A DNA stretch of 64,000 nucleotides, taken from the NCBI RefSeq assembly GCF_050920415.1, contig NZ_CP169309.1, one strand, 5' to 3'. Numbering within the stretch: position 1 is the stretch's first letter; every line of letters starts with the position of its first letter. The stretch is from Escherichia coli (GTDB lineage: Bacteria > Pseudomonadota > Gammaproteobacteria > Enterobacterales > Enterobacteriaceae). This document shows positions 13,932 to 61,126 of the stretch, piece after piece. The position numbers and the translations under genes were made by a program. Below the pieces are notes generated by a model, which worked only from the letters and a program-made list of their open reading frames with translations, ran no database searches and was not told where the DNA came from.

Positions 13932-13940
13932 ATGGTTGAG

Positions 13941-14813
13941 TTACCAGCGACCGGAAGCACCGCCACCGCCAGAAGAACCGTCACCTCCGCTAAATCCGCC
14001 ACCACTTGAGCCGCCACCAGAACCGCCGCTGTCTGAATGATAACTTCTACCTGATGCTTTTTTCTGTGGGACACATAACCAGGTAAAGACCATAATGATG
14101 GTGAAAGTAAAAAAGAAGGAAAATACAGCAATGGAAAAAGTTTGATCGGAGAACAGGAATAAATCTATAAGATAGACTGTTGAAATACAAACACTGCTTT
14201 TAAATGCCCGACAAAAATTATTGCCTTGATGAAAAAACCAGAAAGGGAAGAACATCACTGCAAATACCCAAAAAATAGCAAAGTAGTAATGATCACTGGA
14301 AGACGCTGATTCACTTTCTGAAGGATTAGACGAATATTGGTGTTGTGAAGTGAGTTGGTTATTCAAAGCGATTATAGCTAACTCTCATCCCTTAGCTAAT
14401 TTTTGTTTTTTAAAGGCGGGTATCATGATGTTACGGATGATATTGCCAGCCAGAGCATCGGTTACCTTTTCTTCCAGCCCATAACCTACCTGAATGCGGA
14501 CAGTTCGATCCGACCAGGCAACAACGATCAGTATCCCATCATTACGTTTGGCATCTCCTAAACGCCAATTGTCAAAAACCCTTGTAGCATATTGTTCAAT
14601 AGAATCGCCTCCGGTGGATGGCACTATTAATACAGCGACCTGTGCCCGTGTTTTTTGTGTAATATCCTGCAGCTGTTGTGTCAGTGATTGTTGTTCAGAC
14701 GTGCTTAAGGTACCAGTAATATCGGTCACCTGTTGGCGCAGCTCCGGCACAGCAATTTGCTGGGCAAGCACAGGAAGGCACCATAAAGTGAGTAGAAAAA
14801 GGATTATACGCAT
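13941..14813 (-). pseudogene. YgcG-like TPM-domain membrane protein, copy 3, interrupted by an in-frame TGA
   Basis: ORFs 14385..14825 (signal peptide + TPM domain) and 13941..14366 (TM helices + Gly/Ser tail ...GGGGASGRW) are in the same frame, separated only by TGA at 14385..14387 and 6 sense codons; the downstream ORF begins with TTG, not ATG. Confidence 0.6.
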
Positions 14814-14818
14814 AACGA

Positions 14819-15966
14819 TCACCAACGGTCGGATGAACCGCCACCGCCAGAAGAACCGCCGCCACCGCGGAAAGAGTTTTTCGACGAAGAACGAGAATGA
14901 GCATTACGATTCCCCGTTTTCTTGTTGCTTTTATGCCCTGATCCCAGTTTAAGATTGCCAGTAAATTTGGCCACAATGATCAGCAGAACGATGCCAGCAA
15001 TGGTTATTGGGCCGATAAAATGATCAATTAGCCCAATAATTGTTGAGATGAACGCAATATCTTTATTACTGGCGAATACCAGGCACCATCCCACAACAAT
15101 TATCAGCAGCACGACAAACAATGAATTTCGTCCTGATTCACGAACCTGCGGAGCCTTCTTTTGTTTTTTCACTTTAGCGTTTTTATTTTGGGGGGCCAGC
15201 ATCATAGGAAATGTGCGGCATATATTAAAAACTACCGCGAGACGCTGCCAGCAGATTGCTGCGAAAAATAAACTAAAACAAACGACCGATACCCGCCGAA
15301 TGATGACATCGTCCTGAAAGGAGAAAAACCAGACCATAGGAGTAATCATCGATATCATCCATATGCCAGGCCCGGGACGGCTGGTAAATCGCCAGAGGAC
15401 AACGATGGCAACGATCATCAGTAATGTCCAGGCAAGACATGGCAGCGAGCGTTGCGGATTAGCAAACAGATGATTGGCTAAAGCATCCAAAGGGCTAAGA
15501 TTCGCTTTTATATAGGTAAACTGTGCGATGCCTTCAATTCCCTGCGTTAACCCGGAGAAGAGATTATTTTTTTGAATTCCGGTTGCATATGGTAATGAAC
15601 AATTTGCGCAGCTTGTTCCGGTGGCAGCATCTCTTCCAGTCCATGCCCAATCTTCATTGACGCCAGCCCTTCCGGCCAAACGACGAGAATTAAGATACCT
15701 TCGCCGTACCGCTTCTCTCCAACAGGTTTCCAGTGATATAACCCGTAGCTTTGCGAGGCTGCAAGTTTAATGTCTTTACCCCCAGTGGTCAGCGTTACCA
15801 ACACGGCAACCTGAAAGTGGTTTTGCTGCTCGAGAGTCTGTAATTGTTGAGTTAAAGCAGTTTGTTCTTCTGTCGTTAATGTCCCGGTTAAGTCAGTTAC
15901 TGAAGGCAATTGTTCAGCGAATGCCTGGAAACCACATAGCATCAGAAGTAAGAGAAAAATACGCAT
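14819..15966 (-). pseudogene. YgcG-like TPM-domain membrane protein, copy 2, frame-shifted at an A7 run
   Basis: ORF 15547..15966 (signal + TPM domain) and ORF 14819..15679 (5 TM helices + tail ...[15 protein letters not shown]) overlap in different frames; similarity to the intact paralog continues across the shift (LFSGLTQGIEGI vs LAGGLQKGISDI); switch point is the T7/A7 tract at 15567..15573. Confidence 0.6.
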
Positions 15967-15980
15967 TTCAATTCCTTTTG

Positions 15981-16919
15981 TTACCAGCGCCCGGAGGCGC
16001 CACCGCCGCCAGATGAACCGCCGCCGCCGCTGAAATTATCATTGTCAAAAGAGGATGAAGAGGAAGATGACGACGATGATGAAGAACGCCTGGAGGCCGA
16101 GTTACTTCTTTCGTAATGTGACGGTCGGTTGGCACTGCGCATCGAATCCCGAACCTTTTTGCCGAAGGGGGTAAAAGCGATGGCGACAGCCAGGAACGGT
16201 GTGGCGAAGCAGAGTAATGTTGCGAGTACTCCCCAGCTTCCGCTGAAACCTGCTATAGGTAAAACAAAGGCCAGTACAATAGCTGTGAAGCAAATTAGTC
16301 CCAGCGTTTTGACATATCCTCTGGCGGAAATAAAGGTCAGTACTATTGCCCAGACTAACAAAGCCCACCAACCGCTAAAGGGCAAAGGGTGATCGGTCGG
16401 TGTTATCGCTTCTAAATTATTCCCCGTCAGACGATTATCAATATCGCTTATTCCCTTTTGCAAGCCGCCAGCAAGGTCGCCATTTTTAAATGCCGGAATA
16501 ATACTGTTGCGAATAATTTTCCCGGACTGCGCATCCGTAATAACGCCTTCCAGTCCGTAACCGATTTCAATACGCACGGTATGATCCTGCCAGGCGACTA
16601 ACAGTAGAACGCCATCATCGCGGTCTTTATCTCCGGGTTTCCAGCTATCGAATACCCGCGTTGCGTACTGCTCGATGGTTTCATCGCCTGTGGTTTCAAC
16701 CACTAACACGACCAGTTGTGCGTGGCTTTTTTGCGTCAGCTCTTTAATCTGATTGGTCAACGTATTTACTTCATCGTTCGTCAATTTGCCGGTTAAGTCA
16801 TTCACATACCTGGGTGATTCAGGCACTGGAATTTGTATGGCAAACACAGATGAACAAAAGAAAGCCATAAGGAAGATAAAATTTCGCACAGGACTTCCTC
16901 GCTTAATGAGCATTAGCAT
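15981..16919 (-). CDS. YgcG-family TPM-domain membrane protein, intact copy (312 aa)
   Basis: signal peptide, TPM domain, 3 TM helices, poly-Ser tract, C-terminal [15 protein letters not shown]; probably the ygcG ortholog but which copy is orthologous cannot be decided from sequence alone. Confidence 0.8.
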   Translation of the reverse strand: MLMLIKRGSPVRNFIFLMAFFCSSVFAIQIPVPESPRYVNDLTGKLTNDEVNTLTNQIKELTQKSHAQLVVLVVETTGDETIEQYATRVFDSWKPGDKDRDDGVLLLVAWQDHTVRIEIGYGLEGVITDAQSGKIIRNSIIPAFKNGDLAGGLQKGISDIDNRLTGNNLEAITPTDHPLPFSGWWALLVWAIVLTFISARGYVKTLGLICFTAIVLAFVLPIAGFSGSWGVLATLLCFATPFLAVAIAFTPFGKKVRDSMRSANRPSHYERSNSASRRSSSSSSSSSSSSFDNDNFSGGGGSSGGGGASGRW

Positions 16920-17505
16920 TCTGGCTAAAATCTATTGTTGGGGTTTTACTCACAGCGGCGACATCATCCGGTAAATAATTTTTCTTCGGTGTGTAATCCA
17001 TGACTTTTGCGGTTAACACTGCGGGGAATTTGCGGATAGTGACATTATATTGTTCGATGGCTTTAATATATCTTCCTCGCGCAACGGCAATTCGATTTTC
17101 ACTTCCTTCGAGCTGTACCATCAAATTTTGATAGAGTTCCTGGGCCTTTAGCTCAGGGTAACGTTCACTAATTATCGTTAACTGACCGAGAGTGCGAGAC
17201 ACCTGCGCCTGGGCCTGTTGCCAGACTTGTAATTTTTGTTCATCCCCCGGAGTTTGCTGAAGATCGCTACTGGCGCGATTAGCCTGACTACGTGCCAATG
17301 TTACGGCTTCCAGTACCTCTTGTTCATGGCTGGAATAACCTTTAATACTAGCGACAAGATTAGGAATAAGATCGGCGCGACGTTGATATTGATTTAATAC
17401 CTCAGACCAGGAAGCGTTAACCTGCTCATCATAGGTTTGAATATCGTTATATCCACAGCCTGATAAATTGAAAATAAATATAATTACGATGAATATTCTG
17501 AGCAT
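16903..17505 (-). CDS. LemA-family lipoprotein
   Basis: 200-aa ORF with lipobox (FNLSGCGY) and LemA-like coiled region; its 3' end overlaps the start of the TPM gene (translational coupling). Confidence 0.8.
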   Translation of the reverse strand: MLRIFIVIIFIFNLSGCGYNDIQTYDEQVNASWSEVLNQYQRRADLIPNLVASIKGYSSHEQEVLEAVTLARSQANRASSDLQQTPGDEQKLQVWQQAQAQVSRTLGQLTIISERYPELKAQELYQNLMVQLEGSENRIAVARGRYIKAIEQYNVTIRKFPAVLTAKVMDYTPKKNYLPDDVAAVSKTPTIDFSQNANAH

Positions 17506-35455: not shown

Positions 35456-35757
35456 TGCGAGCCGCATTCCGGCATTTAAACGTGAATATAGCAGGGGAAA
35501 TCAACAGTTATAGAATGGCGTCGGGTGCTTGAGGCTGTCTGGCGTTAAGCATTCGCGAGGTTCCAGATGGACAAAAGCCCCAGGCGATATATCTATCAAC
35601 CTGAGGCTCGCGTTCGAACGTAGCAATTCGGATGTTAGTCTCTTCTTTGCAGGGAGGCAAGACATGTGTATATCACTGTAATTCGATATTTATGAGCAGC
35701 ATCGAAAAATAGTCCACTGATATCATCGATAATACTAAAAAAACAGGGAGGCTATTA

Positions 35758-38424
35758 ATGGAACCTTTTAAATATATATGTCATTACTGGGGGAAATCCT
35801 CAAAAAGCCTGACGAAAGGAAATGATATTCATCTGTTGATTTATCATTGCCTGGATGTTGCAGCTGTTGCAGATTGCTGGTGGGATCAATCAGTCGTACT
35901 ACAAAATGCTTTTTGCCGAAATGAAATGCTATCAAAACAGAAGGTGAAAGCCTGGCTGTTATTTTTCATTGCCCTTCATGATATCGGAAAGTTTGATATA
36001 CGATTCCAATATAAATCAGCAGAAAGTTGGCTGAAATTAAATCCTGCAACGTCATCACTTAATGGTCCATCAACACAAATGTGCCGTAAATTTAATCATG
36101 GTGCAGCCGGTCTGTATTGGTTTAACCAGGATTCACTTTCAGAGCAATCTCCCGGGGATTTTTTCAGTTTTTTTGATGCCGCTCCTCATCCTTATGAGTC
36201 CTGGTTTCCTTGGGTAGAGGCCGTTACAGGACATCATGGTTTTATATTACATTCCCAGGATCAAGATAAGTCGCGTTGGGAAATGCCAGCTTCTCTGGCA
36301 TCTTATGCTGCGCAAGATAAACAGGCTCGTGAGGAGTGGATATCTGTACTCGAAGCATTATTTTTAACACCAGCCGGGTTATCTATAAACGATATACCAC
36401 CTGATTGTTCATCATTGTTAGCAGGTTTTTGCTCGCTTGCTGACTGGTTAGGTTCCTGGACCACAACGGATACCTTTCTATTCAAAGAAGATGCACCTTC
36501 AGGCATACAAGCGCTAAGAAAATATTTTCAGGATAGACAACAGGATGCGTGTCGGGTACTGGAGTTGAGTGGCCTTGTATCAAATAAGCGTAGTTATGAC
36601 GGCGTACATGCCTTACTGGACAATGGCTATCAACCAAGACAATTACAGGTGTTGGTTGATGCTCTTCCTACAGCTCCCGGGCTGACGGTGATTGAGGCAC
36701 CTACGGGATCAGGTAAAACCGAAACAGCGCTGGCCTATGCCTGGAAACTTATTGACCAACAACTTGCGGATAGTGTTATTTTTGCCCTCCCTACACAAGC
36801 TACTGCAAATGCAATGCTCAGCAGAATGGAAGCGAACGCGAGCCGTTTATTTACCTCCCCAAATCTTATTCTTGCTCATGGTAATTCACGTTTTAACCAC
36901 CTTTTTCAATCAATAAAATCACGCGCATTTACTGAGCAGGGGCAAGAAGAAGCGTGGGTTCAGTGTTGCCAATGGTTGTCACAAAGCAATAAGAAAGTGT
37001 TTCTTGGGCAAATAGGAGTTTGCACGATTGATCAGGTGTTGATATCGGTATTGCCAGTTAAACACCGCTTTATCCGTGGTTTGGGAATTGGTCGAAGTGT
37101 TTTAATTGTTGATGAAGTTCATGCTTACGACACGTATATGAACGGCTTGCTGGAGGCTGTGCTCAAGGCTCAGGCTGATGTGGGGGGGAGTGTTATTCTT
37201 CTTTCCGCAACTCTACCAATGAAACAAAAACAGAAACTTCTGGATACTTATGGTCTGCATACAGATCCAGAGGAAAATAACTCCGCATATCCACTCATTA
37301 ACTGGCGAGGTGTGAATGGTGCGCAACGTTTTGATCTGTTAGCTCATCCAGAACAACTCCCGCCCCGCTTTTCAATTCAGCTAGAACCTATTTATTTAGC
37401 TGACATGTTACCTGACCTTACGATGTTAGAGCGAATGATCGCAGCGGCAAACGCGGGTGCACAAGTCTGTCTTATTTGCAATTTGGTTGACGTTGCACAA
37501 GTATGCTACCAACGGCTAAAGGAGCTAAATAACACGCAAGTAGATATAGATTTGTTTCATGCACGCTTTACGCTGAACGATCGTCGAGAAAAAGAGAATC
37601 GTGTTATTAGCGATTTCGGAAAAAATGGGGATCGAAATGTTGGACGAATACTTGTCGCCACGCAAGTCGTGGAACAATCGCTCGACGTTGATTTTGATTG
37701 GTTAATTACCCAGCATTGTCCCGCAGATTTGCTTTTCCAACGATTGGGCCGTTTACATCGTCATCATCGCAAATATCGTCCCGCTGGTTTTGAGATTCCT
37801 GTTGCCACCATTTTGCTGCCTGATGGCGAGGGTTACGGACGACATGAGCATATTTATAGCAACGTTAGAGTCATGTGGCGGACGCAGCAACATATTGAGG
37901 AACTTAATGGAGCATCCTTATTTTTCCCTGATGCTTACCGGCAATGGCTGGATAGCATTTACGATGATGCGGAAATGGATGAGCCAGAATGGGTCGGCAA
38001 TGGCATGGATAAATTTGAAAGCGCCGAGTGTGAAAAAAGGTTCAAGGCTCGTAAGGTTCTGCAGTGGGCTGAAGAATATAGCTTGCAGGATAACGATGAA
38101 ACCATTCTTGCGGTAACGAGGGATGGGGAAATGAGCCTGCCATTATTGCCTTATGTACAAACGTCTTCAGGTAAACAACTGCTCGATGGCCAGGTCTACG
38201 AGGACCTAAGTCATGAACAGCAGTATGAGGTGTTAGCACTTAATCGCGTCAATGTACCCTTCACTTGGAAACGTAGTTTTTCTGAAGTAGTAGATGAAGA
38301 TGGGTTACTTTGGCTGGAAGGGAAACAGAATCAGGATGGATGGATCTGGCAGGGTAATAATATTGTTATTACCTACACTCGGGATGAAGGGATGACCAGA
38401 GTCATCCCTGCAAATCCCAAATAA
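35758..38424 (+). CDS. cas3: type I-E Cas3 HD nuclease / SF2 helicase
   Basis: 888-aa ORF; HD motif (LHDIGKF), Walker A APTGSGKTE, DEVH box (IVDEVHAYD). Confidence 0.96.
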   Translation: MEPFKYICHYWGKSSKSLTKGNDIHLLIYHCLDVAAVADCWWDQSVVLQNAFCRNEMLSKQKVKAWLLFFIALHDIGKFDIRFQYKSAESWLKLNPATSSLNGPSTQMCRKFNHGAAGLYWFNQDSLSEQSPGDFFSFFDAAPHPYESWFPWVEAVTGHHGFILHSQDQDKSRWEMPASLASYAAQDKQAREEWISVLEALFLTPAGLSINDIPPDCSSLLAGFCSLADWLGSWTTTDTFLFKEDAPSGIQALRKYFQDRQQDACRVLELSGLVSNKRSYDGVHALLDNGYQPRQLQVLVDALPTAPGLTVIEAPTGSGKTETALAYAWKLIDQQLADSVIFALPTQATANAMLSRMEANASRLFTSPNLILAHGNSRFNHLFQSIKSRAFTEQGQEEAWVQCCQWLSQSNKKVFLGQIGVCTIDQVLISVLPVKHRFIRGLGIGRSVLIVDEVHAYDTYMNGLLEAVLKAQADVGGSVILLSATLPMKQKQKLLDTYGLHTDPEENNSAYPLINWRGVNGAQRFDLLAHPEQLPPRFSIQLEPIYLADMLPDLTMLERMIAAANAGAQVCLICNLVDVAQVCYQRLKELNNTQVDIDLFHARFTLNDRREKENRVISDFGKNGDRNVGRILVATQVVEQSLDVDFDWLITQHCPADLLFQRLGRLHRHHRKYRPAGFEIPVATILLPDGEGYGRHEHIYSNVRVMWRTQQHIEELNGASLFFPDAYRQWLDSIYDDAEMDEPEWVGNGMDKFESAECEKRFKARKVLQWAEEYSLQDNDETILAVTRDGEMSLPLLPYVQTSSGKQLLDGQVYEDLSHEQQYEVLALNRVNVPFTWKRSFSEVVDEDGLLWLEGKQNQDGWIWQGNNIVITYTRDEGMTRVIPANPK

Positions 38425-38838
38425 CTTCGGGAATGATTGGTATCAATGACGATAACAAGACCAATAACGGTTTATCCCTACTTAAGTAGGGAAGGTGCAC
38501 AATGTACATCTTCTTTTAATTTCCCGGTATGAGATTTTATATTCACAGTATGAATATTTTATGTAATAAAATTTATGGTAATTATTATAACTAAAAATTT
38601 CTTTGATAATAAAACGAATAACTTGCAGATTTGAAATGCATGCATTATTGTCTTTAAACAATTCAACACATCTTAATATATGCATAGGTTAATTGTATTA
38701 AACCAATGAATATATTTTTGCAGTGAATGTGATTATTGAATTAATTACGCCGTATTTTTTCTTTGTTTTTACCGATAACGGAAGTGTGCCGACGTATAGA
38801 AATGCAGGAGAAATGTCGGAGCATATGAAGGAGAACAA
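38425..38838. promoter_or_regulatory. cas3-casA intergenic region holding the casA operon promoter (H-NS/LeuO-controlled in K-12)
   Basis: very AT-rich 414-bp spacer directly upstream of casA; the regulatory role is from established K-12 knowledge, not read from the sequence. Confidence 0.55.
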
Positions 38839-40347
38839 ATGAATTTGCTTATTGATAACTGGATCCCTGTACGCCCGCGAAACGGGGGGAAAGTCCAAAT
38901 CCTAAATCTGCAATCGCTATACTGCAGTAGAGATCAGTGGCGGTTAAGTTTGCCCCGTGACGATATGGAACTGGCCGCTTTAGCACTGCTGGTTTGCATT
39001 GCACAAATTATCGCCCCGGCAAAAGATGACGTTGAATTTCGACATCGCATAATGAATCCGCTCACTGAAGATGAGTTTCAACGACTCATCGCGCCGTGGA
39101 TAGATATGTTCTACCTTAATCACGCAGAACATCCCTTTATGCAGACCAAAGGTGTCAAAGCAAATGATGTGACTCCAATGGAAAAACTATTGGCAGGGGT
39201 AAGCGGCGCGACGAATTGTGCATTTGTCAATCAACCGGGGCAGGGTGAAGCATTATGTGGTGGATGCACTGCGATTGCGTTATTCAACCAGGCGAATCAG
39301 GCACCTGGTTTTGGTGGTGGCTTTAAAAGCGGTTTACGTGGAGGAACACCTATAACCACCTTCGTATGTGGGATCGATCTTCGCTCGACGGTGTTACTCA
39401 ATGTCCTCACAATACCTCGTCTTCAAAAACAATTTCCCAATGAATCAAATACGGAAAACCAACCTACCTGGATTAAGCCTGTCAAGCCCAATGAATCTGT
39501 GCCAGCTTCGTCAATTGGGTTTGTCCGTGGCTTATTCTGGCAACCAGCGCATATTGAATTATGCGATCCCATTGGGATTGGTAAATGTTCTTGCTGTGGA
39601 CAGGAAAGCAATTTGCGTTATACAGGTTTTCTTAAGGAAAAATTTACCTTTACAGTTAATGGGCTATGGCCCCATCCGCATTCCCCTTGTCTGGTAACAG
39701 TCAAGAAAGGGGAGGTTGAGGAAAAATTTCTTGCTTTCACCACCTCCGCACCATCATGGACGCAAATCAGCCGAGTTGTGGTAGATAAGATTATTCAAAA
39801 TGAAAATGGAAATCGCGTGGCGGCGGTTGTGAATCAATTCAGAAATATTGCGCCGCAAAGTCCTCTTGAATTGATTATGGGGGGATATCGTAATAATCAA
39901 GCATCTATTCTTGAACGACGTCATGATGTGCTGATGTTTAATCAGGGGTGGCAACAATACGGCAATGTTATAAACGAAATAGTGACTGTTGGTTTGGGGT
40001 ATAAAACAGCCTTACGCAAGGCGTTATATACTTTTGTGGAAGGTATTAAAAATAAAGACTTTAAAGGGGCTGGAGTCTCTGTTCATGAGACTGCAGAAAG
40101 GCATTTCTATCGACAGAGTGAATTATTAATTCCCGATGTATTGGCGAATGTTAATTTTTCCCAGGCTGATGAGGTAATAGCTGATTTACGAGACAAACTT
40201 CATCAATTGTGTGAAATGCTATTTAATCAATCTGTAGCTCCCTATGCACATCATCCTAAATTAATAAGCACATTAGCACTCGCCCGCGCCACGCTATACA
40301 AACATTTACGGGAGTTAAAACCGCAAGGAGGGCCATCAAATGGCTGA
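38839..40347 (+). CDS. casA: Cascade large subunit Cse1
   Basis: 502-aa ORF, first gene of casABCDE-cas1-cas2. Confidence 0.95.
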   Translation: MNLLIDNWIPVRPRNGGKVQILNLQSLYCSRDQWRLSLPRDDMELAALALLVCIAQIIAPAKDDVEFRHRIMNPLTEDEFQRLIAPWIDMFYLNHAEHPFMQTKGVKANDVTPMEKLLAGVSGATNCAFVNQPGQGEALCGGCTAIALFNQANQAPGFGGGFKSGLRGGTPITTFVCGIDLRSTVLLNVLTIPRLQKQFPNESNTENQPTWIKPVKPNESVPASSIGFVRGLFWQPAHIELCDPIGIGKCSCCGQESNLRYTGFLKEKFTFTVNGLWPHPHSPCLVTVKKGEVEEKFLAFTTSAPSWTQISRVVVDKIIQNENGNRVAAVVNQFRNIAPQSPLELIMGGYRNNQASILERRHDVLMFNQGWQQYGNVINEIVTVGLGYKTALRKALYTFVEGIKNKDFKGAGVSVHETAERHFYRQSELLIPDVLANVNFSQADEVIADLRDKLHQLCEMLFNQSVAPYAHHPKLISTLALARATLYKHLRELKPQGGPSNG

Positions 40348-40822
40348 TGAAATTGATGCAATGGCTTTATATCGAGCCTGGCAACAGCTGGATAACGGAG
40401 CATGTGCGCAAATTAGACGTGTTTCAGAACCTGATGATTTACGCGATATCCCTGCGTTTTATCGGTTGGTGCAACCTTTTGGTTGGGAAAACCTGCGTCA
40501 CCAACAGGCTCTTTTGCGCATGGTGTTTTGCCTGAGCGCAGGAAAGAATGTCATCCGACATCAGGATAAAAAACCGGAGCAAACAATAGGTATCTCGTTG
40601 GGAAGAGCTTTAGCCAATAGTGGAAGAATTAACGAGCGCCGTATCTTCCAATTGATTCGGGCTGACAGAACAGCCGATATGGTCCAGTTACGTCGATTGC
40701 TTGCTCACGCCGAACCCGTACTTGACTGGTCATTAATGGCCCGGATGTTGACCTGGTGGGGAAAGCGCGAACGCCAGCAACTTCTGGAAGATTTTGTATT
40801 GACCACAAACAAAAATGCGTAA
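40340..40822 (+). CDS. casB: Cascade small subunit Cse2
   Basis: 160-aa ORF overlapping casA by 8 bp. Confidence 0.95.
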   Translation: MADEIDAMALYRAWQQLDNGACAQIRRVSEPDDLRDIPAFYRLVQPFGWENLRHQQALLRMVFCLSAGKNVIRHQDKKPEQTIGISLGRALANSGRINERRIFQLIRADRTADMVQLRRLLAHAEPVLDWSLMARMLTWWGKRERQQLLEDFVLTTNKNA

Positions 40823-40834
40823 GGAAACCTCTCA

Positions 40835-41926
40835 ATGTCTAATTTTATTAATATCCATGTCCTGATCTCTCACAGCCCTTCATGTCTGAACCGCGACGAT
40901 ATGAACATGCAGAAAGACGCTATTTTCGGCGGGAAAAGGCGAGTAAGAATTTCAAGTCAAAGCCTTAAACGTGCGATGCGTAAAAGTGATTATTACGCAC
41001 AAAATATTGGTGAATCCAGTCTCAGAACAATTCATCTTGCACAATTACGTGATGTTCTTCGGCAAAAACTTGGTGAACGTTTTGAGCAAAAAATCATCGA
41101 TAAGACATTAGCTCTGCTCTCCGGTAAATCAGTTGATGAAGCTGAAAAGATTTCTGCCGATGCGGTTACTCCCTGGGTTGTGGGAGAAATAGCCTGGTTC
41201 TGTGAGCAGGTTGCAAAAGCAGAGGCAGATAATCTGGATGATAAAAAGCTGCTCAAAATTCTTAAGGAAGATATTGCCGCTATCCGTGTGAATTTACAGC
41301 AGGGGGTTGATATTGCGCTTAGCGGAAGAATGGCAACCAGCGGCATGATGAGTGAGTTGGGAAAAGTTGATGGTGCAATGTCCATTGCGCACGCGATCAC
41401 GACCCATCAGGTTGATTCTGATATTGACTGGTTCACCGCCGTAGATGATTTACAGGAACAAGGTTCTGCACATCTGGGAACACAGGAATTTTCATCGGGT
41501 GTTTTTTATCGTTATGCCAACATTAACCTTGCTCAACTTCAGGAAAATTTAGGCGGCGCCTCCTGGGAGCAGGCTCTGGAAATTGCAACCCATGTTGTTC
41601 ATATGCTGGCAACAGAGGTCCCTGGAGCAAAACAGCGTACTTATGCCGCTTTTAACCCTGCGGAGATGGTAATGGTTAATTTCTCCGATATGCCACTTTC
41701 TATGGCAAATGCTTTTGAAAAAGCGGTGAAAGCGAAAGATGGCTTTTTGCAACCGTCTATACAGGCGTTTAATCAATATTGGGATCGCGTTGCGAATGGC
41801 TATGGTCTGAACGGAGCTGCTGCGCAATTTAGCTTGTCTGACATGGACCCAATTACTGCTCAGGTTAAACAAATGCCTACTTTAGAACAGTTAAAATCCT
41901 GGGTTCGTAATAATGGCGAGGCGTGA
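40835..41926 (+). CDS. casC: Cascade backbone subunit Cas7e
   Basis: 363-aa ORF; [22 protein letters not shown]. Confidence 0.95.
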
Positions 41927-41928
41927 AC

Positions 41929-42603
41929 ATGAGATCTTATTTGATCTTGCGGCTTGCTGGGCCAATGCAAGCCTGGGGGCTGCCGACCTTTGAAGGAACG
42001 CGACCTACCGGAAGATTTCCGACCCGAAGCGGGTTATTAGGGCTACTCGGGGCTTGTCTTGGGATCCAACGTGATGATACTTCTTCATTACAGGTGTTAT
42101 CAGAGAGTGTGCAATTTGCAGTGCGTTGCGATGAACTCATTCTTGACGATCGTCGTGTGTCTGTAACGGGGTTGCGTGATTACCATACAGTCCTTGGAGC
42201 GCGAGAAGATTACCGTGGTTTGAAAAGTCATGAAACGATTCAAACATGGCGCGAATATTTATGTGATGCCTCCTTTACCGTCGCTATCTGGTTAACACCA
42301 CAGGCAACGATGGTTATGTCAGAACTTGAAAAAGCAGTATTAAAGCCTCGGTATACACCGTATCTGGGGCGGAGGAGTTGTCCGCTAACACAACCGCTTT
42401 TTCTCGGGACATGTCAGGCGTCGGATCCTCAGAAGGCGCTATTAAATTATGAGCCCGTTGGCGGCGATATTTATAGTGAGGAATCAGTTGACGGGCATCA
42501 TTTAAAATTTACGGTGCGCGACGAACCGATGATCACCTTACCTCGACAATTTGCTTCCCGGGAATGGTATGTGATTAAAGGAGGTATGGATGTATCTCAG
42601 TAA
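41929..42603 (+). CDS. casD: Cascade subunit Cas5e
   Basis: ORF 41923..42603; start taken at MRSYLILRLAGPMQAWG. Confidence 0.92.
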   Translation: MRSYLILRLAGPMQAWGLPTFEGTRPTGRFPTRSGLLGLLGACLGIQRDDTSSLQVLSESVQFAVRCDELILDDRRVSVTGLRDYHTVLGAREDYRGLKSHETIQTWREYLCDASFTVAIWLTPQATMVMSELEKAVLKPRYTPYLGRRSCPLTQPLFLGTCQASDPQKALLNYEPVGGDIYSEESVDGHHLKFTVRDEPMITLPRQFASREWYVIKGGMDVSQ

Positions 42604-43189
42604 AATCATCATTGCCAGGGCCTGTAGCAGGGATCTTTACCAACTTCACCAGGGATTATGGCATTTATTTCCAAATAGACCAGATGCTGCTCGTGATTTT
42701 CTTTTTCATGTTGAGAAGCGAAACACACCAGAAGGCTGTCATGTTTTATTGCAGTCAGCGCAAATGCCTGTTTCAACTGCCGTTGCGACAGTCATTAAAA
42801 CTAAACAGGTTGAATTTCAACTTCAGGTTGGTGTTCCACTCTATTTTCGGCTTCGGGCAAATCCGATCAAAACTATTCTCGACAATCAAAAGCGTCTGGA
42901 CAGTAAAGGGAATATTAAACGCTGTCGGGTTCCGTTAATAAAAGAAGCAGAACAAATCGCGTGGTTGCAACGTAAATTGGGCAATGCGGCGCGCGTTGAA
43001 GATGTGCATCCCATATCGGAACGGCCACAGTATTTTTCTGGGGAAGGTAAAAATGGAAAAATCCAAACGGTTTGCTTTGAAGGTGTGCTCACCGTCAATG
43101 ACGCATCAGCGTTAATGGATCTTATACAGCAAGGTATTGGGCCAGCCAAATCGATGGGATGTGGTTTGCTATCTTTGGCTCCACTGTGA
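42590..43189 (+). CDS. casE: Cas6e crRNA endoribonuclease
   Basis: 199-aa ORF; MYLSKIIIARA... Confidence 0.95.
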   Translation: MYLSKIIIARACSRDLYQLHQGLWHLFPNRPDAARDFLFHVEKRNTPEGCHVLLQSAQMPVSTAVATVIKTKQVEFQLQVGVPLYFRLRANPIKTILDNQKRLDSKGNIKRCRVPLIKEAEQIAWLQRKLGNAARVEDVHPISERPQYFSGEGKNGKIQTVCFEGVLTVNDASALMDLIQQGIGPAKSMGCGLLSLAPL

Positions 43190-43204
43190 TTGAGGTGTAA
43201 TAAA

Positions 43205-44408
<1,204 letters not shown>

Positions 44409-44513: not shown

Positions 44514-45701
44514 GAGTTCCCCGCGCCAGCGGGGATAAACCGCTCGCGTATACTCTCTGCCAACGTCTCCAGATGAGTTCCCCGCGCCAGCGGGGATAAA
44601 CCGGCGGGATTATCGGCACTGACGTCGGCGCTGTGGAGTTCCCCGCGCCAGCGGGGATAAACCGGGTCGCTTCCATATATGAACCTTGAGGATTAGGAGT
44701 TCCCCGCGCCAGCGGGGATAAACCGGTTCCATGCACTGCCCGCAGTGTCAGCCGTACGAGTTCCCCGCGCCAGCGGGGATAAACCGGTAAATCATACGTT
44801 GGCATCAGTATTTTTCTCGAGTTCCCCGCGCCAGCGGGGATAAACCGACTCCGCGCCATTTGAGAATTCTCAGTTCTGCGAGTTCCCCGCGCCAGCGGGG
44901 ATAAACCGCTACTGCTGTCAGACGGCAGGGCAAAACAGCGGAGTTCCCCGCGCCAGCGGGGATAAACCGGACGTGCGGATGCTGTTTCTGGTTTTACCTC
45001 CGAGTTCCCCGCGCCAGCGGGGATAAACCGTTTTTTCTCAGCGTCTGGCAGAGCTAATCGCCGAGTTCCCCGCGCCAGCGGGGATAAACCGGTGTCAAAT
45101 TTCATGTAATTGATGATCCAGCTGAGTTCCCCGCGCCAGCGGGGATAAACCGGGTATTTCTCGTTAACACGGTCGTATCAAAACGAGTTCCCCGCGCCAG
45201 CGGGGATAAACCGAGGGGTTGCAACCATAGCCCTTAGTTGATTGCGAGTTCCCCGCGCCAGCGGGGATAAACCGCCAGTGGATTTTAATAAACTCTCCAG
45301 CGAGCAGAGTTCCCCGCGCCAGCGGGGATAAACCGTTCGCCACGTCAGGCGTGATTTCCTGCACTGAGAGTTCCCCGCGCCAGCGGGGATAAACAGGGCG
45401 CGTCTGCGCCCGCTAGGACTCGTGTCAAGAGTTCCCCGCGCCAGCGGGGATAAACCGGGAGTTCAGACATAGGTGGAATGATGGACTACGAGTTCCCCGC
45501 GTTAGCGGGGATAAACCGCCCGGTAGCCAGGTTTGCAACGCCTGAACCGAGAGTTCCCCGCGCCAGCAGGGATAAATCGGCAACGACGGTGAGATTTCAC
45601 GCCTGACGCTGGTGTTCCCCGCATCAGCGGGGATAAACCGGGCGCACTGGATGCGATGATGGATATCACTTAGAATTCCCCGCCCCTGCGGTAGAACTCC
45701 C
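44514..45701 (+). CRISPR. type I-E CRISPR array, 20 repeats / 19 spacers
   Basis: 29-bp repeat GAGTTCCCCGCGCCAGCGGGGATAAACCG at 44514 and every 61 bp to 45673; 32-bp spacers; variants in repeats 15 (AAACaG), 17 (GCGttAGC), 18, 19 and a degenerate terminal repeat. Confidence 0.97.
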
Positions 45702-54586: not shown

Positions 54587-55726
54587 ATGAGCGCGGGAAG
54601 CCCAAAATTCACCGTTCGCCGCATTGCGGCTTTGTCACTGGTTTCGCTATGGCTGGCAGGCTGTTCTGACACTTCAAATCCACCGGCACCGGTCAGCTCC
54701 GTTAATGGCAATGCGTCTGCAAACACCAATTCTGGTATGTTGATTACGCCGCCGCCGAAAATGGGGACGACGTCTACAACGCAGCAACCGCAAATTCAGC
54801 CGGTACAGCAGCCACAAATTCAATCTGCACAACAACCGCAAATCCAGCCGGTGCAGCCAGTTGCTCAGCCGCCGGTACAGATGGAAAACGGACGCATCGT
54901 CTACAACCGTCAGTATGGGAACATTCCGAAAGGCAGTTATAGCGGCAGTACATACACCGTGAAAAAAGGCGACACACTTTTCTATATCGCCTGGATTACT
55001 GGCAATGATTTCCGTGACCTTGCTCAGCGCAACAATATTCAGGCACCATACGCGCTGAATGTAGGTCAGACCTTACAGGTGGGTAATGCTTCCGGTACGC
55101 CAATCACTGGTGGAAATGCCATTACCCAGGCCGATGCAGCAGAGCAAGGAGTTGTGATCAAGCCTGCACAAAATTCCACCGTTGCTGTTGCGTCGCAACC
55201 GACAATTACGTATTCTGAGTCTTCGGGTGAACAGAGTGCTAACAAAATGTTGCCGAACAACAAGCCAACTGGGACCACGGTCACAGCGCCTGTAACGGTA
55301 CCAACAGCAAGCACAACCGAGCCGACTGTCAGCAGTACATCAACCAGTGCGCCTATCTCCACCTGGCGCTGGCCGACTGAGGGCAAAGTGATCGAAACCT
55401 TTGGTGCTTCTGAGGGGGGCAACAAGGGGATTGATATCGCAGGCAGCAAAGGACAGGCAATTATCGCGACCGCAGATGGCCGCGTTGTTTATGCCGGTAA
55501 CGCGCTGCGCGGCTACGGTAATCTGATTATCATCAAACATAATGATGATTACCTGAGTGCCTACGCCCATAACGACACAATGCTGGTCCGGGAACAACAA
55601 GAAGTGAAGGCGGGGCAAAAAATAGCGACTATGGGTAGCACCGGAACCAGTTCAACACGCTTGCATTTTGAAATTCGTTACAAGGGGAAATCCGTAAACC
55701 CGCTGCGCTATTTGCCGCAGCGATAA
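54587..55726 (+). CDS. nlpD: murein hydrolase activator NlpD (LysM + M23)
   Basis: 379-aa ORF; lipobox LAGCS, QQPQIQ repeats, LysM and degenerate M23 domain; known to harbour the rpoS promoter in E. coli. Confidence 0.92.
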
Positions 55727-55788
55727 ATCGGCGGAACCAGGCTTTTGCTTGAATGTTCCGTCAAGGGATCACGGGTAGGAGCCACCTT

Positions 55789-56781
55789 ATGAGTCAGAAT
55801 ACGCTGAAAGTTCATGATTTAAATGAAGATGCGGAATTTGATGAGAACGGAGTTGAGGTTTTTGACGAAAAGGCCTTAGTAGAAGAGGAACCCAGTGATA
55901 ACGATTTGGCCGAAGAGGAACTGTTATCGCAAGGGGCCACACAGCGTGTGTTGGACGCGACTCAGCTTTACCTTGGTGAGATTGGTTATTCACCACTGTT
56001 AACGGCCGAAGAAGAAGTTTATTTTGCGCGTCGCGCACTGCGAGGAGATGTTGCCTCCCGCCGCCGGATGATCGAGAGTAACTTGCGTCTGGTGGTAAAA
56101 ATTGCCCGCCGTTATGGCAATCGTGGTCTGGCTTTGCTGGATCTTATCGAAGAGGGCAACCTGGGGCTGATCCGCGCGGTAGAGAAGTTTGACCCGGAAC
56201 GTGGTTTCCGCTTCTCAACATACGCAACCTGGTGGATTCGCCAAACGATCGAACGGGCGATTATGAACCAAACCCGTACTATTCGTTTGCCGATTCACAT
56301 CGTAAAGGAGCTGAACGTTTACCTGCGAACCGCACGTGAGTTGTCCCATAAGCTGGACCACGAACCAAGTGCGGAAGAGATCGCAGAGCAGCTGGATAAG
56401 CCAGTTGATGACGTCAGCCGTATGCTTCGTCTTAACGAGCGCATTACCTCGGTAGACACCCCGCTGGGTGGAGATTCCGAAAAAGCGTTGCTGGACATCC
56501 TGGCCGATGAAAAAGAAAACGGCCCGGAAGATACCACGCAAGATGACGATATGAAACAAAGCATCGTCAAATGGCTGTTCGAACTGAACGCCAAACAGCG
56601 TGAAGTGCTGGCACGTCGATTCGGTTTGCTGGGGTACGAAGCGGCAACACTGGAAGATGTAGGTCGTGAAATTGGCCTCACCCGTGAACGTGTTCGCCAG
56701 ATTCAGGTTGAAGGCCTGCGCCGTTTGCGCGAAATCCTGCAAACGCAGGGGCTGAATATCGAAGCGCTGTTCCGCGAATAA
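55789..56781 (+). CDS. rpoS: RNA polymerase sigma factor RpoS (sigma-38)
   Basis: ORF 55753..56781; start taken at [18 protein letters not shown] (330 aa); full length with no internal stop; codon 33 encodes Glu. Confidence 0.96.
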
Positions 56782-56796
56782 GTAAGCATCTGTCAG

Positions 56797-56832
56797 AAAG
56801 GCCAGTCTCTTATGAGGCTGGCCTTTTTCTTT
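56797..56832 (+). terminator. rpoS rho-independent terminator
   Basis: AAAGGCCAG-loop-CTGGCCTTTttcttttg. Confidence 0.7.
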
Positions 56833-56901
56833 TGTATGGGGAGTTGGTGTGTTTCGTCGCCTGGATAAGACACGTCAGCGTCCCATCCGGCAATCAACAT
56901 C

Positions 56902-57309
56902 CTATTTGCTCATCATCTTGCGCACCAGCTGCATAAACAGCTCCTGCTCTTCTCCACTCAAACGCCCCAAAAATTCCTCATCCACACTGTCGCCAATCGG
57001 TATCGCCGCAGCAAGTACCTTTTCTCCTTCGGCAGTCAGCCAGACAAAGCGTCGCCGCTTATCAGCGGTGTCATGTTCACGTCTGACTAAGCCACGATTT
57101 TCCATTCTTGCCAACATTTCTGCCAGCGTTGCTTTGGTGCTGACGGCTGCTTCCATCAGTGCCACCTGTTCGATACCAGGTTTATCAGCAATGGCGCGCA
57201 TCACCGCGTACTGTGGTTTGGTCAGGTCAGGTAACTCGTGCTGCCAGCGGGCCGTATGCTGCTGAAAAAGCTGTCGTAACTGATGGAACGCTTTATTTCG
57301 TAACGCCAT
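56902..57309 (-). CDS. MarR/SlyA-family transcriptional regulator
   Basis: 135-aa ORF with winged-helix MarR signature; divergent from the decarboxylase operon. Confidence 0.8.
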   Translation of the reverse strand: MALRNKAFHQLRQLFQQHTARWQHELPDLTKPQYAVMRAIADKPGIEQVALMEAAVSTKATLAEMLARMENRGLVRREHDTADKRRRFVWLTAEGEKVLAAAIPIGDSVDEEFLGRLSGEEQELFMQLVRKMMSK

Positions 57310-57424
57310 GTAAACTCCGGGCTAATTCTCTGTCGCTATCATAGCGGTTTTTCAGTGACGAAGAAGATGTTGTTACTTTTCAATCCTTGCCGCTGTGGAA
57401 ATGAAGGAGTATGTTAATAATAAC

Positions 57425-57438
57425 GTTCGTATACGAAC
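57425..57438. promoter_or_regulatory. perfect 14-bp palindrome, candidate MarR operator
   Basis: GTTCGTATACGAAC about 18 bp upstream of the ubiX-like start, in the divergent promoter region. Confidence 0.45.
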
Positions 57439-57455
57439 AATTAAGATAGTAAGCA

Positions 57456-58049
57456 ATGAAACTGATCGTCGGGATGACAGGGGCTACCGGTGCGCCTCTT
57501 GGTGTGGCATTACTGCAAGCGCTGCGGGAGATGCCGAATGTCGAGACTCATCTGGTGATGTCGAAGTGGGCGAAAACCACTATTGAACTGGAAACGCCTT
57601 ACAGCGCTCGCGATGTTGCCGCCCTCGCTGACTTCAGCCATAACCCGGCGGATCAGGCTGCGACCATCTCTTCCGGCTCCTTTCGTACCGACGGCATGAT
57701 CGTTATTCCATGCAGTATGAAAACGCTCGCCGGTATCCGCGCTGGTTACGCCGATGGTCTCGTAGGGCGCGCGGCGGACGTCGTGCTCAAAGAAGGCCGC
57801 AAACTGGTGCTGGTGCCGCGTGAAATGCCGCTTAGCACCATCCATCTCGAAAATATGCTCGCACTTTCGCGCATGGGCGTGGCGATGGTGCCGCCGATGC
57901 CTGCCTTTTATAACCATCCCGAAACGGTAGATGACATTGTCCACCACGTGGTAGCCCGCGTGCTGGATCAATTTGGCCTCGAACATCCTCACGCCAGGCG
58001 CTGGCAAGGGTTGCCGCAGGCCCGGAATTTTTCTCAGGAGAATGAATAA
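57456..58049 (+). CDS. ecdB: UbiX/Pad1-family flavin prenyltransferase (decarboxylase subunit B)
   Basis: 197-aa ORF; MKLIVGMTGATGAPLG flavoprotein motif. Confidence 0.85.
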   Translation: MKLIVGMTGATGAPLGVALLQALREMPNVETHLVMSKWAKTTIELETPYSARDVAALADFSHNPADQAATISSGSFRTDGMIVIPCSMKTLAGIRAGYADGLVGRAADVVLKEGRKLVLVPREMPLSTIHLENMLALSRMGVAMVPPMPAFYNHPETVDDIVHHVVARVLDQFGLEHPHARRWQGLPQARNFSQENE

Positions 58050-59476
58050 TGGCATTTGATGATTTACGCAGCTTTTTACAGGCGCTCGACGACCAGGGGC
58101 AATTGCTGAAAATCAGCGAAGAGGTGAATGCCGAGCCGGATCTGGCTGCCGCTGCCAACGCCACCGGGCGTATCGGCGACGGCGCGCCCGCGCTGTGGTT
58201 TGATAATATTCGCGGCTTTACCGATGCGCGCGTGGCGATGAACACCATCGGCTCCTGGCAGAACCACGCGATTTCCCTCGGGCTGCCACCGAACACACCG
58301 GTTAAAAAACAGATTGATGAGTTTATCCGCCGCTGGGATAACTTTCCCATTGCCCCGGAACGCCGCGCCAATCCTGCCTGGGCGCAGAACACCGTCGATG
58401 GCGACGAGATCAATTTGTTCAATATCCTGCCGCTGTTTCGTTTAAACGATGGCGATGGCGGTTTCTATCTCGACAAAGCGTGCGTGGTTTCCCGCGATCC
58501 GCTCGATCCGGATAACTTCGGCAAGCAGAACGTCGGCATCTATCGCATGGAAGTGAAGGGTAAGCGTAAGCTCGGCCTGCAACCGGTGCCGATGCACGAT
58601 ATCGCCCTGCATCTGCATAAAGCAGAAGAGCGCGGTGAAGATCTGCCGATTGCGATCACGCTCGGTAACGATCCGATCATCACCCTGATGGGCGCCACCC
58701 CGCTGAAATATGATCAATCGGAGTACGAAATGGCGGGCGCACTACGCGAAAGCCCGTACCCGATCGCCACCGCCCCGCTGACCGGTTTTGATGTGCCGTG
58801 GGGCTCGGAGGTGATCCTCGAAGGGGTAATCGAAAGCCGTAAACGCGAGATTGAAGGGCCGTTCGGTGAATTTACCGGCCACTACTCCGGCGGGCGCAAC
58901 ATGACCGTGGTGCGCATCGATAAAGTCTCTTACCGCACCAAACCGATTTTTGAATCGCTCTATCTCGGTATGCCGTGGACCGAAATCGACTACCTGATGG
59001 GGCCAGCCACCTGTGTGCCGCTGTATCAGCAACTGAAAGCCGAGTTCCCGGAAGTGCAGGCGGTGAACGCTATGTACACCCACGGCCTGCTGGCGATTAT
59101 CTCCACCAAAAAACGCTATGGCGGCTTTGCCCGCGCAGTGGGCCTGCGTGCGATGACCACGCCGCACGGTCTGGGTTATGTGAAGATGGTGATTATGGTC
59201 GATGAAGACGTTGACCCGTTCAACCTGCCGCAGGTGATGTGGGCGCTCTCGTCGAAAGTGAACCCGGCAGGCGATCTGGTGCAACTGCCGAATATGTCCG
59301 TGCTGGAACTCGACCCAGGCTCAAGCCCGGCGGGGATCACCGATAAGCTGATTATCGACGCCACCACGCCTGTCGCCCCGGACAACCGTGGCCACTACAG
59401 CCAGCCGGTGGTGGACTTACCGGAAACCAAAGCCTGGGCTGAAAAACTGACCGCTATGCTGGCCGCACGTAAATAA
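58049..59476 (+). CDS. ecdC: UbiD-family (hydroxyarylic acid) decarboxylase subunit C
   Basis: 475-aa ORF with UbiD family signature; start overlaps the ubiX-like stop. Confidence 0.85.
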   Translation: MAFDDLRSFLQALDDQGQLLKISEEVNAEPDLAAAANATGRIGDGAPALWFDNIRGFTDARVAMNTIGSWQNHAISLGLPPNTPVKKQIDEFIRRWDNFPIAPERRANPAWAQNTVDGDEINLFNILPLFRLNDGDGGFYLDKACVVSRDPLDPDNFGKQNVGIYRMEVKGKRKLGLQPVPMHDIALHLHKAEERGEDLPIAITLGNDPIITLMGATPLKYDQSEYEMAGALRESPYPIATAPLTGFDVPWGSEVILEGVIESRKREIEGPFGEFTGHYSGGRNMTVVRIDKVSYRTKPIFESLYLGMPWTEIDYLMGPATCVPLYQQLKAEFPEVQAVNAMYTHGLLAIISTKKRYGGFARAVGLRAMTTPHGLGYVKMVIMVDEDVDPFNLPQVMWALSSKVNPAGDLVQLPNMSVLELDPGSSPAGITDKLIIDATTPVAPDNRGHYSQPVVDLPETKAWAEKLTAMLAARK

Positions 59477-59486
59477 GGAGAACAAG

Positions 59487-59723
59487 ATGATTTGTCCACG
59501 TTGTGCCGATGAACAGATTGAAGTGATGGCGAAATCGCCGGTGAAAAATGTCTGGACGGTCTACCAGTGCCAGCATTGCCTTTATACCTGGCGCGATACT
59601 GAACCGCTACGCCGCACCAGCCGCGAACATTATCCCGAAGCCTTCCGCATGACGCAGAAAGATATTGATGACGCGCCGATGGTGCCGAGCATCCCGCCGC
59701 TGCTGGCGGAAGGTAAGCGCTAA
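59487..59723 (+). CDS. ecdD: small decarboxylase subunit D (zinc-ribbon-like)
   Basis: 78-aa ORF with CPRC...CQHC motif, third gene of a B-C-D decarboxylase operon. Confidence 0.7.
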   Translation: MICPRCADEQIEVMAKSPVKNVWTVYQCQHCLYTWRDTEPLRRTSREHYPEAFRMTQKDIDDAPMVPSIPPLLAEGKR

Positions 59724-59726
59724 ATA

Positions 59727-59757
59727 AAAGGTCCGATGCCCATCGGACCTTTTTATT
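59727..59757. terminator. bidirectional terminator between ecdD and ygbN
   Basis: AAAGGTCCGATG-cc-CATCGGACCTTTttatt. Confidence 0.6.
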
Positions 59758-59761
59758 AAGG

Positions 59762-61126
59762 TCAAATTACCGCCCATACGCACCAGGTAATTAAGAATCC
59801 GGTAAAACCGAGAATGGTCGTTAACACTGTCCAGGTTTTCAGACCGTCTGCTACCGACAACCCCAGATATTTGGTCACAATCCAGAACCCTGAGTCATTA
59901 ATATGTGACGCGCCAAGCCCACCAAAGCAGGCTGCCAGCGTCACCAATACGCACTGAATCGGATTCAATCCCATCACCGCTTCTGAGAGTAACCCGCCGG
60001 TTGTCAGGATTGCTACGGTTGCTGACCCCTGCGATGCACGCAGCGCCAGTGAAATAATAAATGCGGCTGGTAACAGAGGCAGGTCAATCATTTGTAGCAT
60101 GTTGGCAAGGGCTTTGCCGACGCCCGATTCCACCAGCACTTTGCCAAATACCCCTCCAGCACCAGTAACCAAAATCACTACCGCCGCAGTGGGAAGGGCT
60201 GAGCCCATAATGTCGCTGGTGTGTTGTAAGCTCCAGCCGCGACGTAAAGCCAATAACCAGAATGCCAGCACCAGCGCAATCATTAGAGCTACCATTGGTG
60301 AGCCGATCAGCTGTAGCGTACCAAGCAGGGGATGCGAAGGCGGCATCAGTGTTGCGGAAACCGTACCCGCCATGATAATCGCGATAGGAATAACAATTAG
60401 CGAGGTGACCAGCGCGACGCCCGGTGGATTTATTTTATCGCTTAATTTTGTCGCGCCTTCCTCACTGGCCGGAGCCAGTTGCATCTGTTCCAGTACTTCC
60501 ACCGACATCGCATATTGGCGCTTATTGATTATTTTCGCTGCAAAGTAGCCAACAATCCCTACGGGAATAGAAATCGCAATACCGATGATGGTTAGCCAGC
60601 CGATGTCTGCGTGGAGTAACCCCGCTGCGGCGACAGGGCCTGGATGCGGCGGTACCGCCACATGAACAGTTAGCATGATTCCAGCGACAGGCAGGCCAAA
60701 TTTGAGTGGCGATATTTTGGCAACCTTGGCAAAACCGTAAATGATTGGCGCAAGAATAATAAAGCCGACATCAAAGAAGACGGGAATACCGAGGAAGAAC
60801 GCTGCCAGAGTCAGCGCAGCGATAGTTCGTTTGTCACCTAACTTGCGACTGAAATAATTAGCCAGTGACTCTGCACCACCAGAGTGTTCGATCATACGCC
60901 CCAGCATAGCGCCCAGACCAATAATAATAGTGACGGAACCAAGCACACCGCCCATCCCGGCGATCATCACTTTACCCACTTCGCCCGCCGGTATACCCGC
61001 CGCAAGTGCGACTAACAGGCTGACGAGGAGCAGAGCAACGAATGGTTGTACCTTTGCCTTGATGACCAGCAGCAACAGCATGATTACGCCAGTTAACGCA
61101 ATGCATAACAATGTAATTGTGGACAT
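59762..61126 (-). CDS. ygbN: GntP-family permease
   Basis: 454-aa ORF, multi-TM GntP profile. Confidence 0.85.
   Translation of the reverse strand: MSTITLLCIALTGVIMLLLLVIKAKVQPFVALLLVSLLVALAAGIPAGEVGKVMIAGMGGVLGSVTIIIGLGAMLGRMIEHSGGAESLANYFSRKLGDKRTIAALTLAAFFLGIPVFFDVGFIILAPIIYGFAKVAKISPLKFGLPVAGIMLTVHVAVPPHPGPVAAAGLLHADIGWLTIIGIAISIPVGIVGYFAAKIINKRQYAMSVEVLEQMQLAPASEEGATKLSDKINPPGVALVTSLIVIPIAIIMAGTVSATLMPPSHPLLGTLQLIGSPMVALMIALVLAFWLLALRRGWSLQHTSDIMGSALPTAAVVILVTGAGGVFGKVLVESGVGKALANMLQMIDLPLLPAAFIISLALRASQGSATVAILTTGGLLSEAVMGLNPIQCVLVTLAACFGGLGASHINDSGFWIVTKYLGLSVADGLKTWTVLTTILGFTGFLITWCVWAVI

Follow-up and report, generated by a model that had tools for sequence, protein, structure and literature searches.

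An intact Glu33-type rpoS gene in a natural, non-K-12 lineage of Escherichia coli

Introduction

Codon 33 of rpoS, the gene for sigma-S (sigma-38), is polymorphic in Escherichia coli. GAG at this codon, encoding Glu, was reported to be common among natural isolates outside K-12, and all VTEC strains tested had it (PMC2700278). Every EHEC and probiotic isolate examined in another study had the same codon (PMC1852560), which was also described as very common, with EPEC E2348/69 included (PMC5491219). Furthermore, most ECOR strains have Glu33, whose activity is reportedly similar to that of Gln33, and rpoS lesions were observed in 20-30% of natural isolates (PMC3074542).

The described systems closest to the locus studied here are the following. 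The rpoS gene of K-12 strain MG1655 (b2741, NP_417221.1; UniProt RPOS_ECOLI) has CAG, encoding Gln, at codon 33, and the rpoS(Am33) alleles of W3110, J53, S17-1, HMS174 and other K-12 strains have the amber codon TAG. The Glu33 RpoS of natural isolates is represented by the RefSeq protein WP_000081550.1. With regard to the surroundings of the gene, the mutS-rpoS (o454-nlpD) region is known in a form called 'pattern IV', which is that of EPEC E2348/69 (PMC4209514).

In this study, we analysed rpoS and its neighbourhood in a 64-kb stretch of E. coli DNA (hereafter, the window) and compared them with these systems. An initial annotation of the window had described rpoS as full length with Glu at codon 33, and had taken this to suggest a functional general stress response. 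The coordinates of the features around rpoS are summarized in Table 1.

Table 1 Features at the rpoS locus (positions in the window)
Feature	Position	Strand	Remarks
nlpD	54587..55726	+	5' neighbour of rpoS; 28 nt and 7 aa differences from K-12
Inferred long rpoS 5' UTR	55222..55788	+	Inside nlpD; extent from the K-12 transcript start
Upstream arm of the self-inhibitory leader hairpin	55665..55687	+	About -124 to -102; identical to K-12
Shine-Dalgarno sequence AGGAG	55777..55781	+	7 nt 5' of ATG 55789; read from the sequence
rpoS CDS	55789..56781	+	330 codons and TAA; encodes sigma-S (sigma-38), Glu33 form
Codon 33, GAG (Glu)	55885..55887	+	Direct reading and script
rpoS intrinsic terminator	56795..56838	+	15-pair stem, 4-nt loop, T-rich tail
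2.9-kb segment absent from K-12	56828..59722		Between the rpoS terminator and ygbN
MarR/slyA-like regulator	56902-57309	-	Annotation from a 99.985%-identical locus
Hydroxyarylic acid decarboxylase subunit B	57456-58049		Annotation from the same 99.985%-identical locus
Hydroxyarylic acid decarboxylase subunit C	58049-59476		Annotation from the same 99.985%-identical locus
Hydroxyarylic acid decarboxylase subunit D	59487-59723		Annotation from the same 99.985%-identical locus

Results and discussion

The reading frame and its product

Translation of the frame from the ATG at 55789 to the TAA at 56779-56781 gave 330 residues with zero internal stops, and the same start and end are given in the RefSeq annotation of the nearly identical record NZ_CP169399.1. 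Hence, the full-length rpoS of the initial annotation was found to have exact coordinates and an uninterrupted frame of 330 codons. The list of open reading frames also contained an in-frame ATG at 55753, 12 codons earlier; this candidate start was rejected on the position of the Shine-Dalgarno sequence and on the concordant starts in K-12 and RefSeq.

The product was then compared with protein profiles. The NCBIfam RpoS equivalog NF004207 was matched with 604.6 bits against a cut-off of 394, with positions 1-329 of 329 covered, and TIGR02394 was matched with 480.7 bits against a cut-off of 378.7. The RpoD, RpoH and SigB models all remained below their own cut-offs on this product in the profile search. 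An open frame of 330 codons with such a score against the RpoS equivalog rules out a chance ORF. Four Pfam sigma-70 profiles were each matched over essentially the whole length, namely region 1.2 (PF00140, residues 56-88), region 2 (PF04542, residues 94-163), region 3 (PF04539, residues 174-248) and region 4 (PF04545, residues 262-315). Lys173, which we take to be the residue recognised by RssB for turnover by ClpXP, was present and was invariant in the alignment.

The position of the gene agreed with this identification: nlpD is followed, after a gap of 62 nt, by rpoS on the same strand, and this order is common to K-12 and to E. coli MFDS1022581. At least 1000 contigs carry the exact protein, under names such as 'MULTISPECIES: RNA polymerase sigma factor RpoS [Enterobacteriaceae]'. 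The rpoS DNA of NZ_CP169399.1 is 100% identical to that of the window and its protein accession is WP_000081550.1; between this natural-isolate Glu33 RpoS and the product of the window there is zero difference at the protein level.

Comparison with RpoS of K-12

The alignment with rpoS of MG1655 was gapless and contained 19 nucleotide differences. When the two genes were compared codon by codon, 18 of the 19 were synonymous third-position changes and the remaining one, C97G, corresponded to the replacement Q33E. The two proteins are therefore of equal length and share 329 of 330 residues, with Gln33 (CAG) in MG1655 and Glu33 (GAG) in the window. No nonsense, frameshift or deletion was present in rpoS relative to MG1655.

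According to the initial annotation, its reading would be contradicted by a missense change at an essential sigma-factor residue; such a change was looked for in the MG1655 alignment and none was found. All residues except 33 are those of sigma-S in solved structures of the RNA polymerase holoenzyme (alignment with 6kj6; 5ipl and 6omf were also listed). A hidden missense lesion was thus rejected, because neither the codon comparison with MG1655 nor the alignment with sigma-S of the PDB revealed any besides Q33E. The 18 silent changes without further replacement would fit the pattern expected under purifying selection.

The list of open reading frames contains three antisense ORFs (83 to 175 aa) that overlap rpoS. 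One of them, a 120-aa ORF at 56319-56681 on the minus strand, showed 0 aa changes from K-12 despite 8 nucleotide differences, as a second gene within rpoS might. However, the third codon positions of this ORF coincide with those of rpoS (coordinates divisible by 3), and the zero replacements are an expected artefact because the wobble positions are shared. In addition, there are 7 and 3 amino-acid replacements relative to K-12 in the remaining two antisense ORFs, the product of the 120-aa ORF is rich in Ser and of low complexity, and neither an Rfam family nor any other signal was found at that ORF. A second gene at this position is hardly conceivable on these grounds, and antisense coding in rpoS was rejected, the shared wobble positions explaining the conservation.

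Codon 33 and its frequency

The presence of Glu at codon 33, as described in the initial annotation, was confirmed by the GAG triplet (Table 1). The residue is located in an acidic N-terminal segment ahead of region 1.2, which begins at residue 56. In the rpoS(Am33) alleles of K-12 this codon is altered to TAG; in the window it encodes an amino acid.

The frequency of the three codons was examined with three probes of 81 bases, each with codon 33 (GAG, CAG or TAG) at its centre, for which exact matches were counted in 5426 complete E. coli genomes. Codon 33 is the sole difference between the window and K-12 in the stretch covered by the probes. The GAG33 probe was found in 4809 of 5414 complete genomes, and the matches listed were O157:H7 and other natural isolates. 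The CAG33 probe was found in 173 genomes; among the 40 matches listed, nearly all were MG1655 or other laboratory derivatives of K-12, or had K-12-type labels. The amber probe, TAG33, was found in 121 genomes, and the 40 matches listed mostly had K-12-derived or K-12-type labels (W3110, J53, S17-1, HMS174 and NEB strains), together with O16:H48 isolates and BLR(DE3). About 311 genomes with polymorphisms near codon 33 fall outside these three exact-match counts.

Most of the listed matches of the TAG33 and CAG33 probes being K-12 derivatives, the counts agree with the premise of the initial annotation that amber and other rpoS lesions are common in laboratory lines (PMC2700278). Conversely, GAG is the norm of the species, and Glu33 as an unusual feature was rejected on the counts of the three probes; judged by these genomes, Glu33 is the default state of E. 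coli and no distinguishing feature. In the alignment, RpoS of E. albertii and of Leclercia also had Glu33. Glu33 is therefore probably the ancestral state, with Gln and the amber codon peculiar to K-12.

Leader, promoter and terminator

The segment 53340-56827, containing pcm, nlpD and rpoS, was colinear with K-12 without gaps, at 97.8% identity and with 77 substitutions. The nlpD-rpoS arrangement, the Shine-Dalgarno sequence, the leader arm and the terminator stem are common to MG1655 and the window. In K-12, nlpD carries the promoter and the leader of rpoS, and we assumed a K-12 transcript start approximately 567 nt upstream of the gene. A simple consensus scan of 55000-57500 matched no sigma-70-like promoter, a result that is uninformative on the rpoS promoter inside nlpD.

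Relative to K-12, the leader contains seven substitutions, at -517, -440, -384, -294, -183, -159 and -81, and no gaps. The last 80 nt before the ATG, including the Shine-Dalgarno sequence, are identical to K-12. The differences nearest to the upstream arm of the leader hairpin are those at -159 and -81. We take this arm to be the site at which DsrA, RprA and ArcZ pair in K-12 and, with Hfq, open the self-inhibitory hairpin. Both the predicted MFE fold and the centroid fold paired the arm with 55782-55805, which contains the ribosome-binding site and the start codon, with a z-score of only -1.72; the predicted fold is consistent with the inhibitory-hairpin model of K-12 and is not independent evidence.

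The stem of the terminator is the same as in K-12, and all four bases of the loop differ at 56810-56813 (AAGC in K-12 and TTAT in the window). The 2.9-kb insert starts a short distance downstream of the changed loop. The sole match in an Rfam scan of the whole window was the sok RNA described below, and rpoS and its flanks had none.

With regard to nlpD, five of the seven NlpD replacements relative to K-12 are within residues 44-95, which include a Gln/Pro-rich repeat stretch, and RpoS has only Q33E. The start of nlpD is placed later in the RefSeq annotation of the relative (1095 versus 1140 nt).

Expected function in the general stress response

Taken together, these findings suggest that the interval is an intact wild-type rpoS of a natural, non-K-12 E. 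coli, coding for the common and probably ancestral Glu33 sigma-S. The protein would have all four sigma-70 regions for binding of the core RNA polymerase and recognition of promoters. With the translation signals, the self-inhibitory leader arm and the terminator conserved, functional sigma-S would be expected to be formed under the usual post-transcriptional control. That this is an intact wild-type rpoS of the Glu33 form, and that the locus should make functional sigma-S, we regard as nearly certain. Because every residue except 33 is that of a structurally and functionally characterised sigma-S, we infer that the RpoS regulon, including katE (catalase HPII), glgS (glycogen) and acid resistance, would be transcribed; RpoS would presumably accumulate in the strain and drive the regulon.

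The functional stress response that the initial annotation had read from the locus was supported only in part: the intact gene and the wild-type protein stood, whereas an intact ORF alone does not establish the response and Glu33 is the default residue. A working general stress response requires an intact rpoS but is not guaranteed by it, since strains whose RpoS proteins are identical can differ greatly in RpoS level: ECOR2 and ECOR22 had very low RpoS and ECOR69 the highest level measured, all with the same protein sequence (PMC3074542). By this precedent, and with seven leader substitutions relative to K-12, the gene could be intact and yet the response weak or absent, the RpoS level being set by proteolysis through RssB/ClpXP, by Hfq and small RNAs, by ppGpp, by Crl or by the leader substitutions. 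We consider this unlikely for the present strain. In every ECOR strain in which RpoS was undetectable, rpoS itself had a nonsense or frameshift lesion (PMC3074542), and the window has neither. The target arm of the small RNAs and the ribosome-binding site are unchanged from K-12. Furthermore, relA (7509-9743, 744 aa) and barA (3347-6103, 918 aa), which are positive inputs to RpoS, are open full-length frames in the window. Most regulators of the RpoS level, among them the trans-acting rssB, hfq, dsrA, rprA, arcZ and crl as well as spoT, are located outside the 64-kb window.

The strain thus lacks the kind of rpoS lesion that laboratory K-12 stocks typically have and that also affects 20-30% of natural isolates (PMC3074542). 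This can serve as a routine note on annotation and quality, for example in predicting tolerance to acid, oxidative stress or starvation. An intact Glu33 rpoS is already known and unremarkable, and raises no new question.

Lineage and the segment downstream of rpoS

Identity between the window and MFDS1022581, an E. coli strain isolated from food in Korea, was 99.85-99.99%. Among 5426 complete E. coli genomes, no other reached 99% identity over 39001-64000. The rpoS gene itself was at least 99% identical in only 19 of 5414 genomes; by this count, a common protein is encoded here by an uncommon synonymous haplotype. Relative to K-12, the haplotype is marked by the 18 synonymous changes, the seven leader substitutions, the terminator loop with all four bases changed and the 2.9-kb insert next to it. 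Such a haplotype might shift RpoS translation or mRNA stability from those of the common alleles, as a lineage-specific retuning without a change of the protein, and we consider this very improbable.

Downstream of rpoS, the alignment with K-12 broke at 56827 and resumed at 59723. In MG1655, ygbN is directly 3' of rpoS, whereas in the window the 2.9-kb insert comes first. The gene order of pattern IV, ygbN(o454)-kpdD-kpdC-kpdB-slyA-rpoS-nlpD (PMC4209514), is that of the window at 54587-61126, and no difference was noted. Judging from this gene order, the insert is an already known form of a polymorphic region.

Since Glu33 (GAG) is known in some K-12 stocks (PMC2700278), the window could be regarded as that of a K-12 laboratory line with the Glu33 variant, and the allele would then record the history of a laboratory stock. 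We give this origin virtually no weight. In addition to Q33E, rpoS has 18 synonymous differences from MG1655, the insert downstream is absent from K-12, and the nearest complete genome is that of the food isolate. A K-12 origin is refuted by the 77 substitutions across pcm-nlpD-rpoS together with the insert. The intact Glu33 rpoS and the downstream insert point instead to a natural, non-K-12 lineage.

The divergence from K-12 was uneven along the region, with 97.8% identity over pcm-nlpD-rpoS versus 99.3% over ygbN-ygbL. This unevenness would be in line with the recombination mosaic reported for this region.

Other features in the window

A full cas3-casABCDE-cas1-cas2 set was observed at 35758-44400. 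It is followed, downstream of cas2, by a type I-E CRISPR array at 44514-45700 with 19 clear 29-nt repeats, 18 spacers of 32 nt and a degenerate terminal repeat. MFDS1022581 has no spacer that is absent from the window, and five internal spacers of the window (44726-45001) are missing from this approximately 99.9%-identical genome. Between cysH and cas3, the sok antitoxin RNA (RF01794) was detected at 35523-35678 with 97.1 bits. K-12 has a chromosomal hok/sok-type locus at that position, to which this presumably corresponds.

The relA gene is followed, 95 nt on, by a 263-aa ORF that is mazG in the annotation of the relative. In K-12, as we understand it, the mazEF toxin-antitoxin pair separates relA and mazG, and mazEF appears to be absent between the two genes in the lineage of the window. 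Finally, at approximately 13940-16920, the annotation of the relative gives three TPM-domain pseudogenes (with an internal stop, a frameshift and a truncation) beside an intact LemA gene, and in the same place the window contains broken ORFs of 286 and 312 aa.
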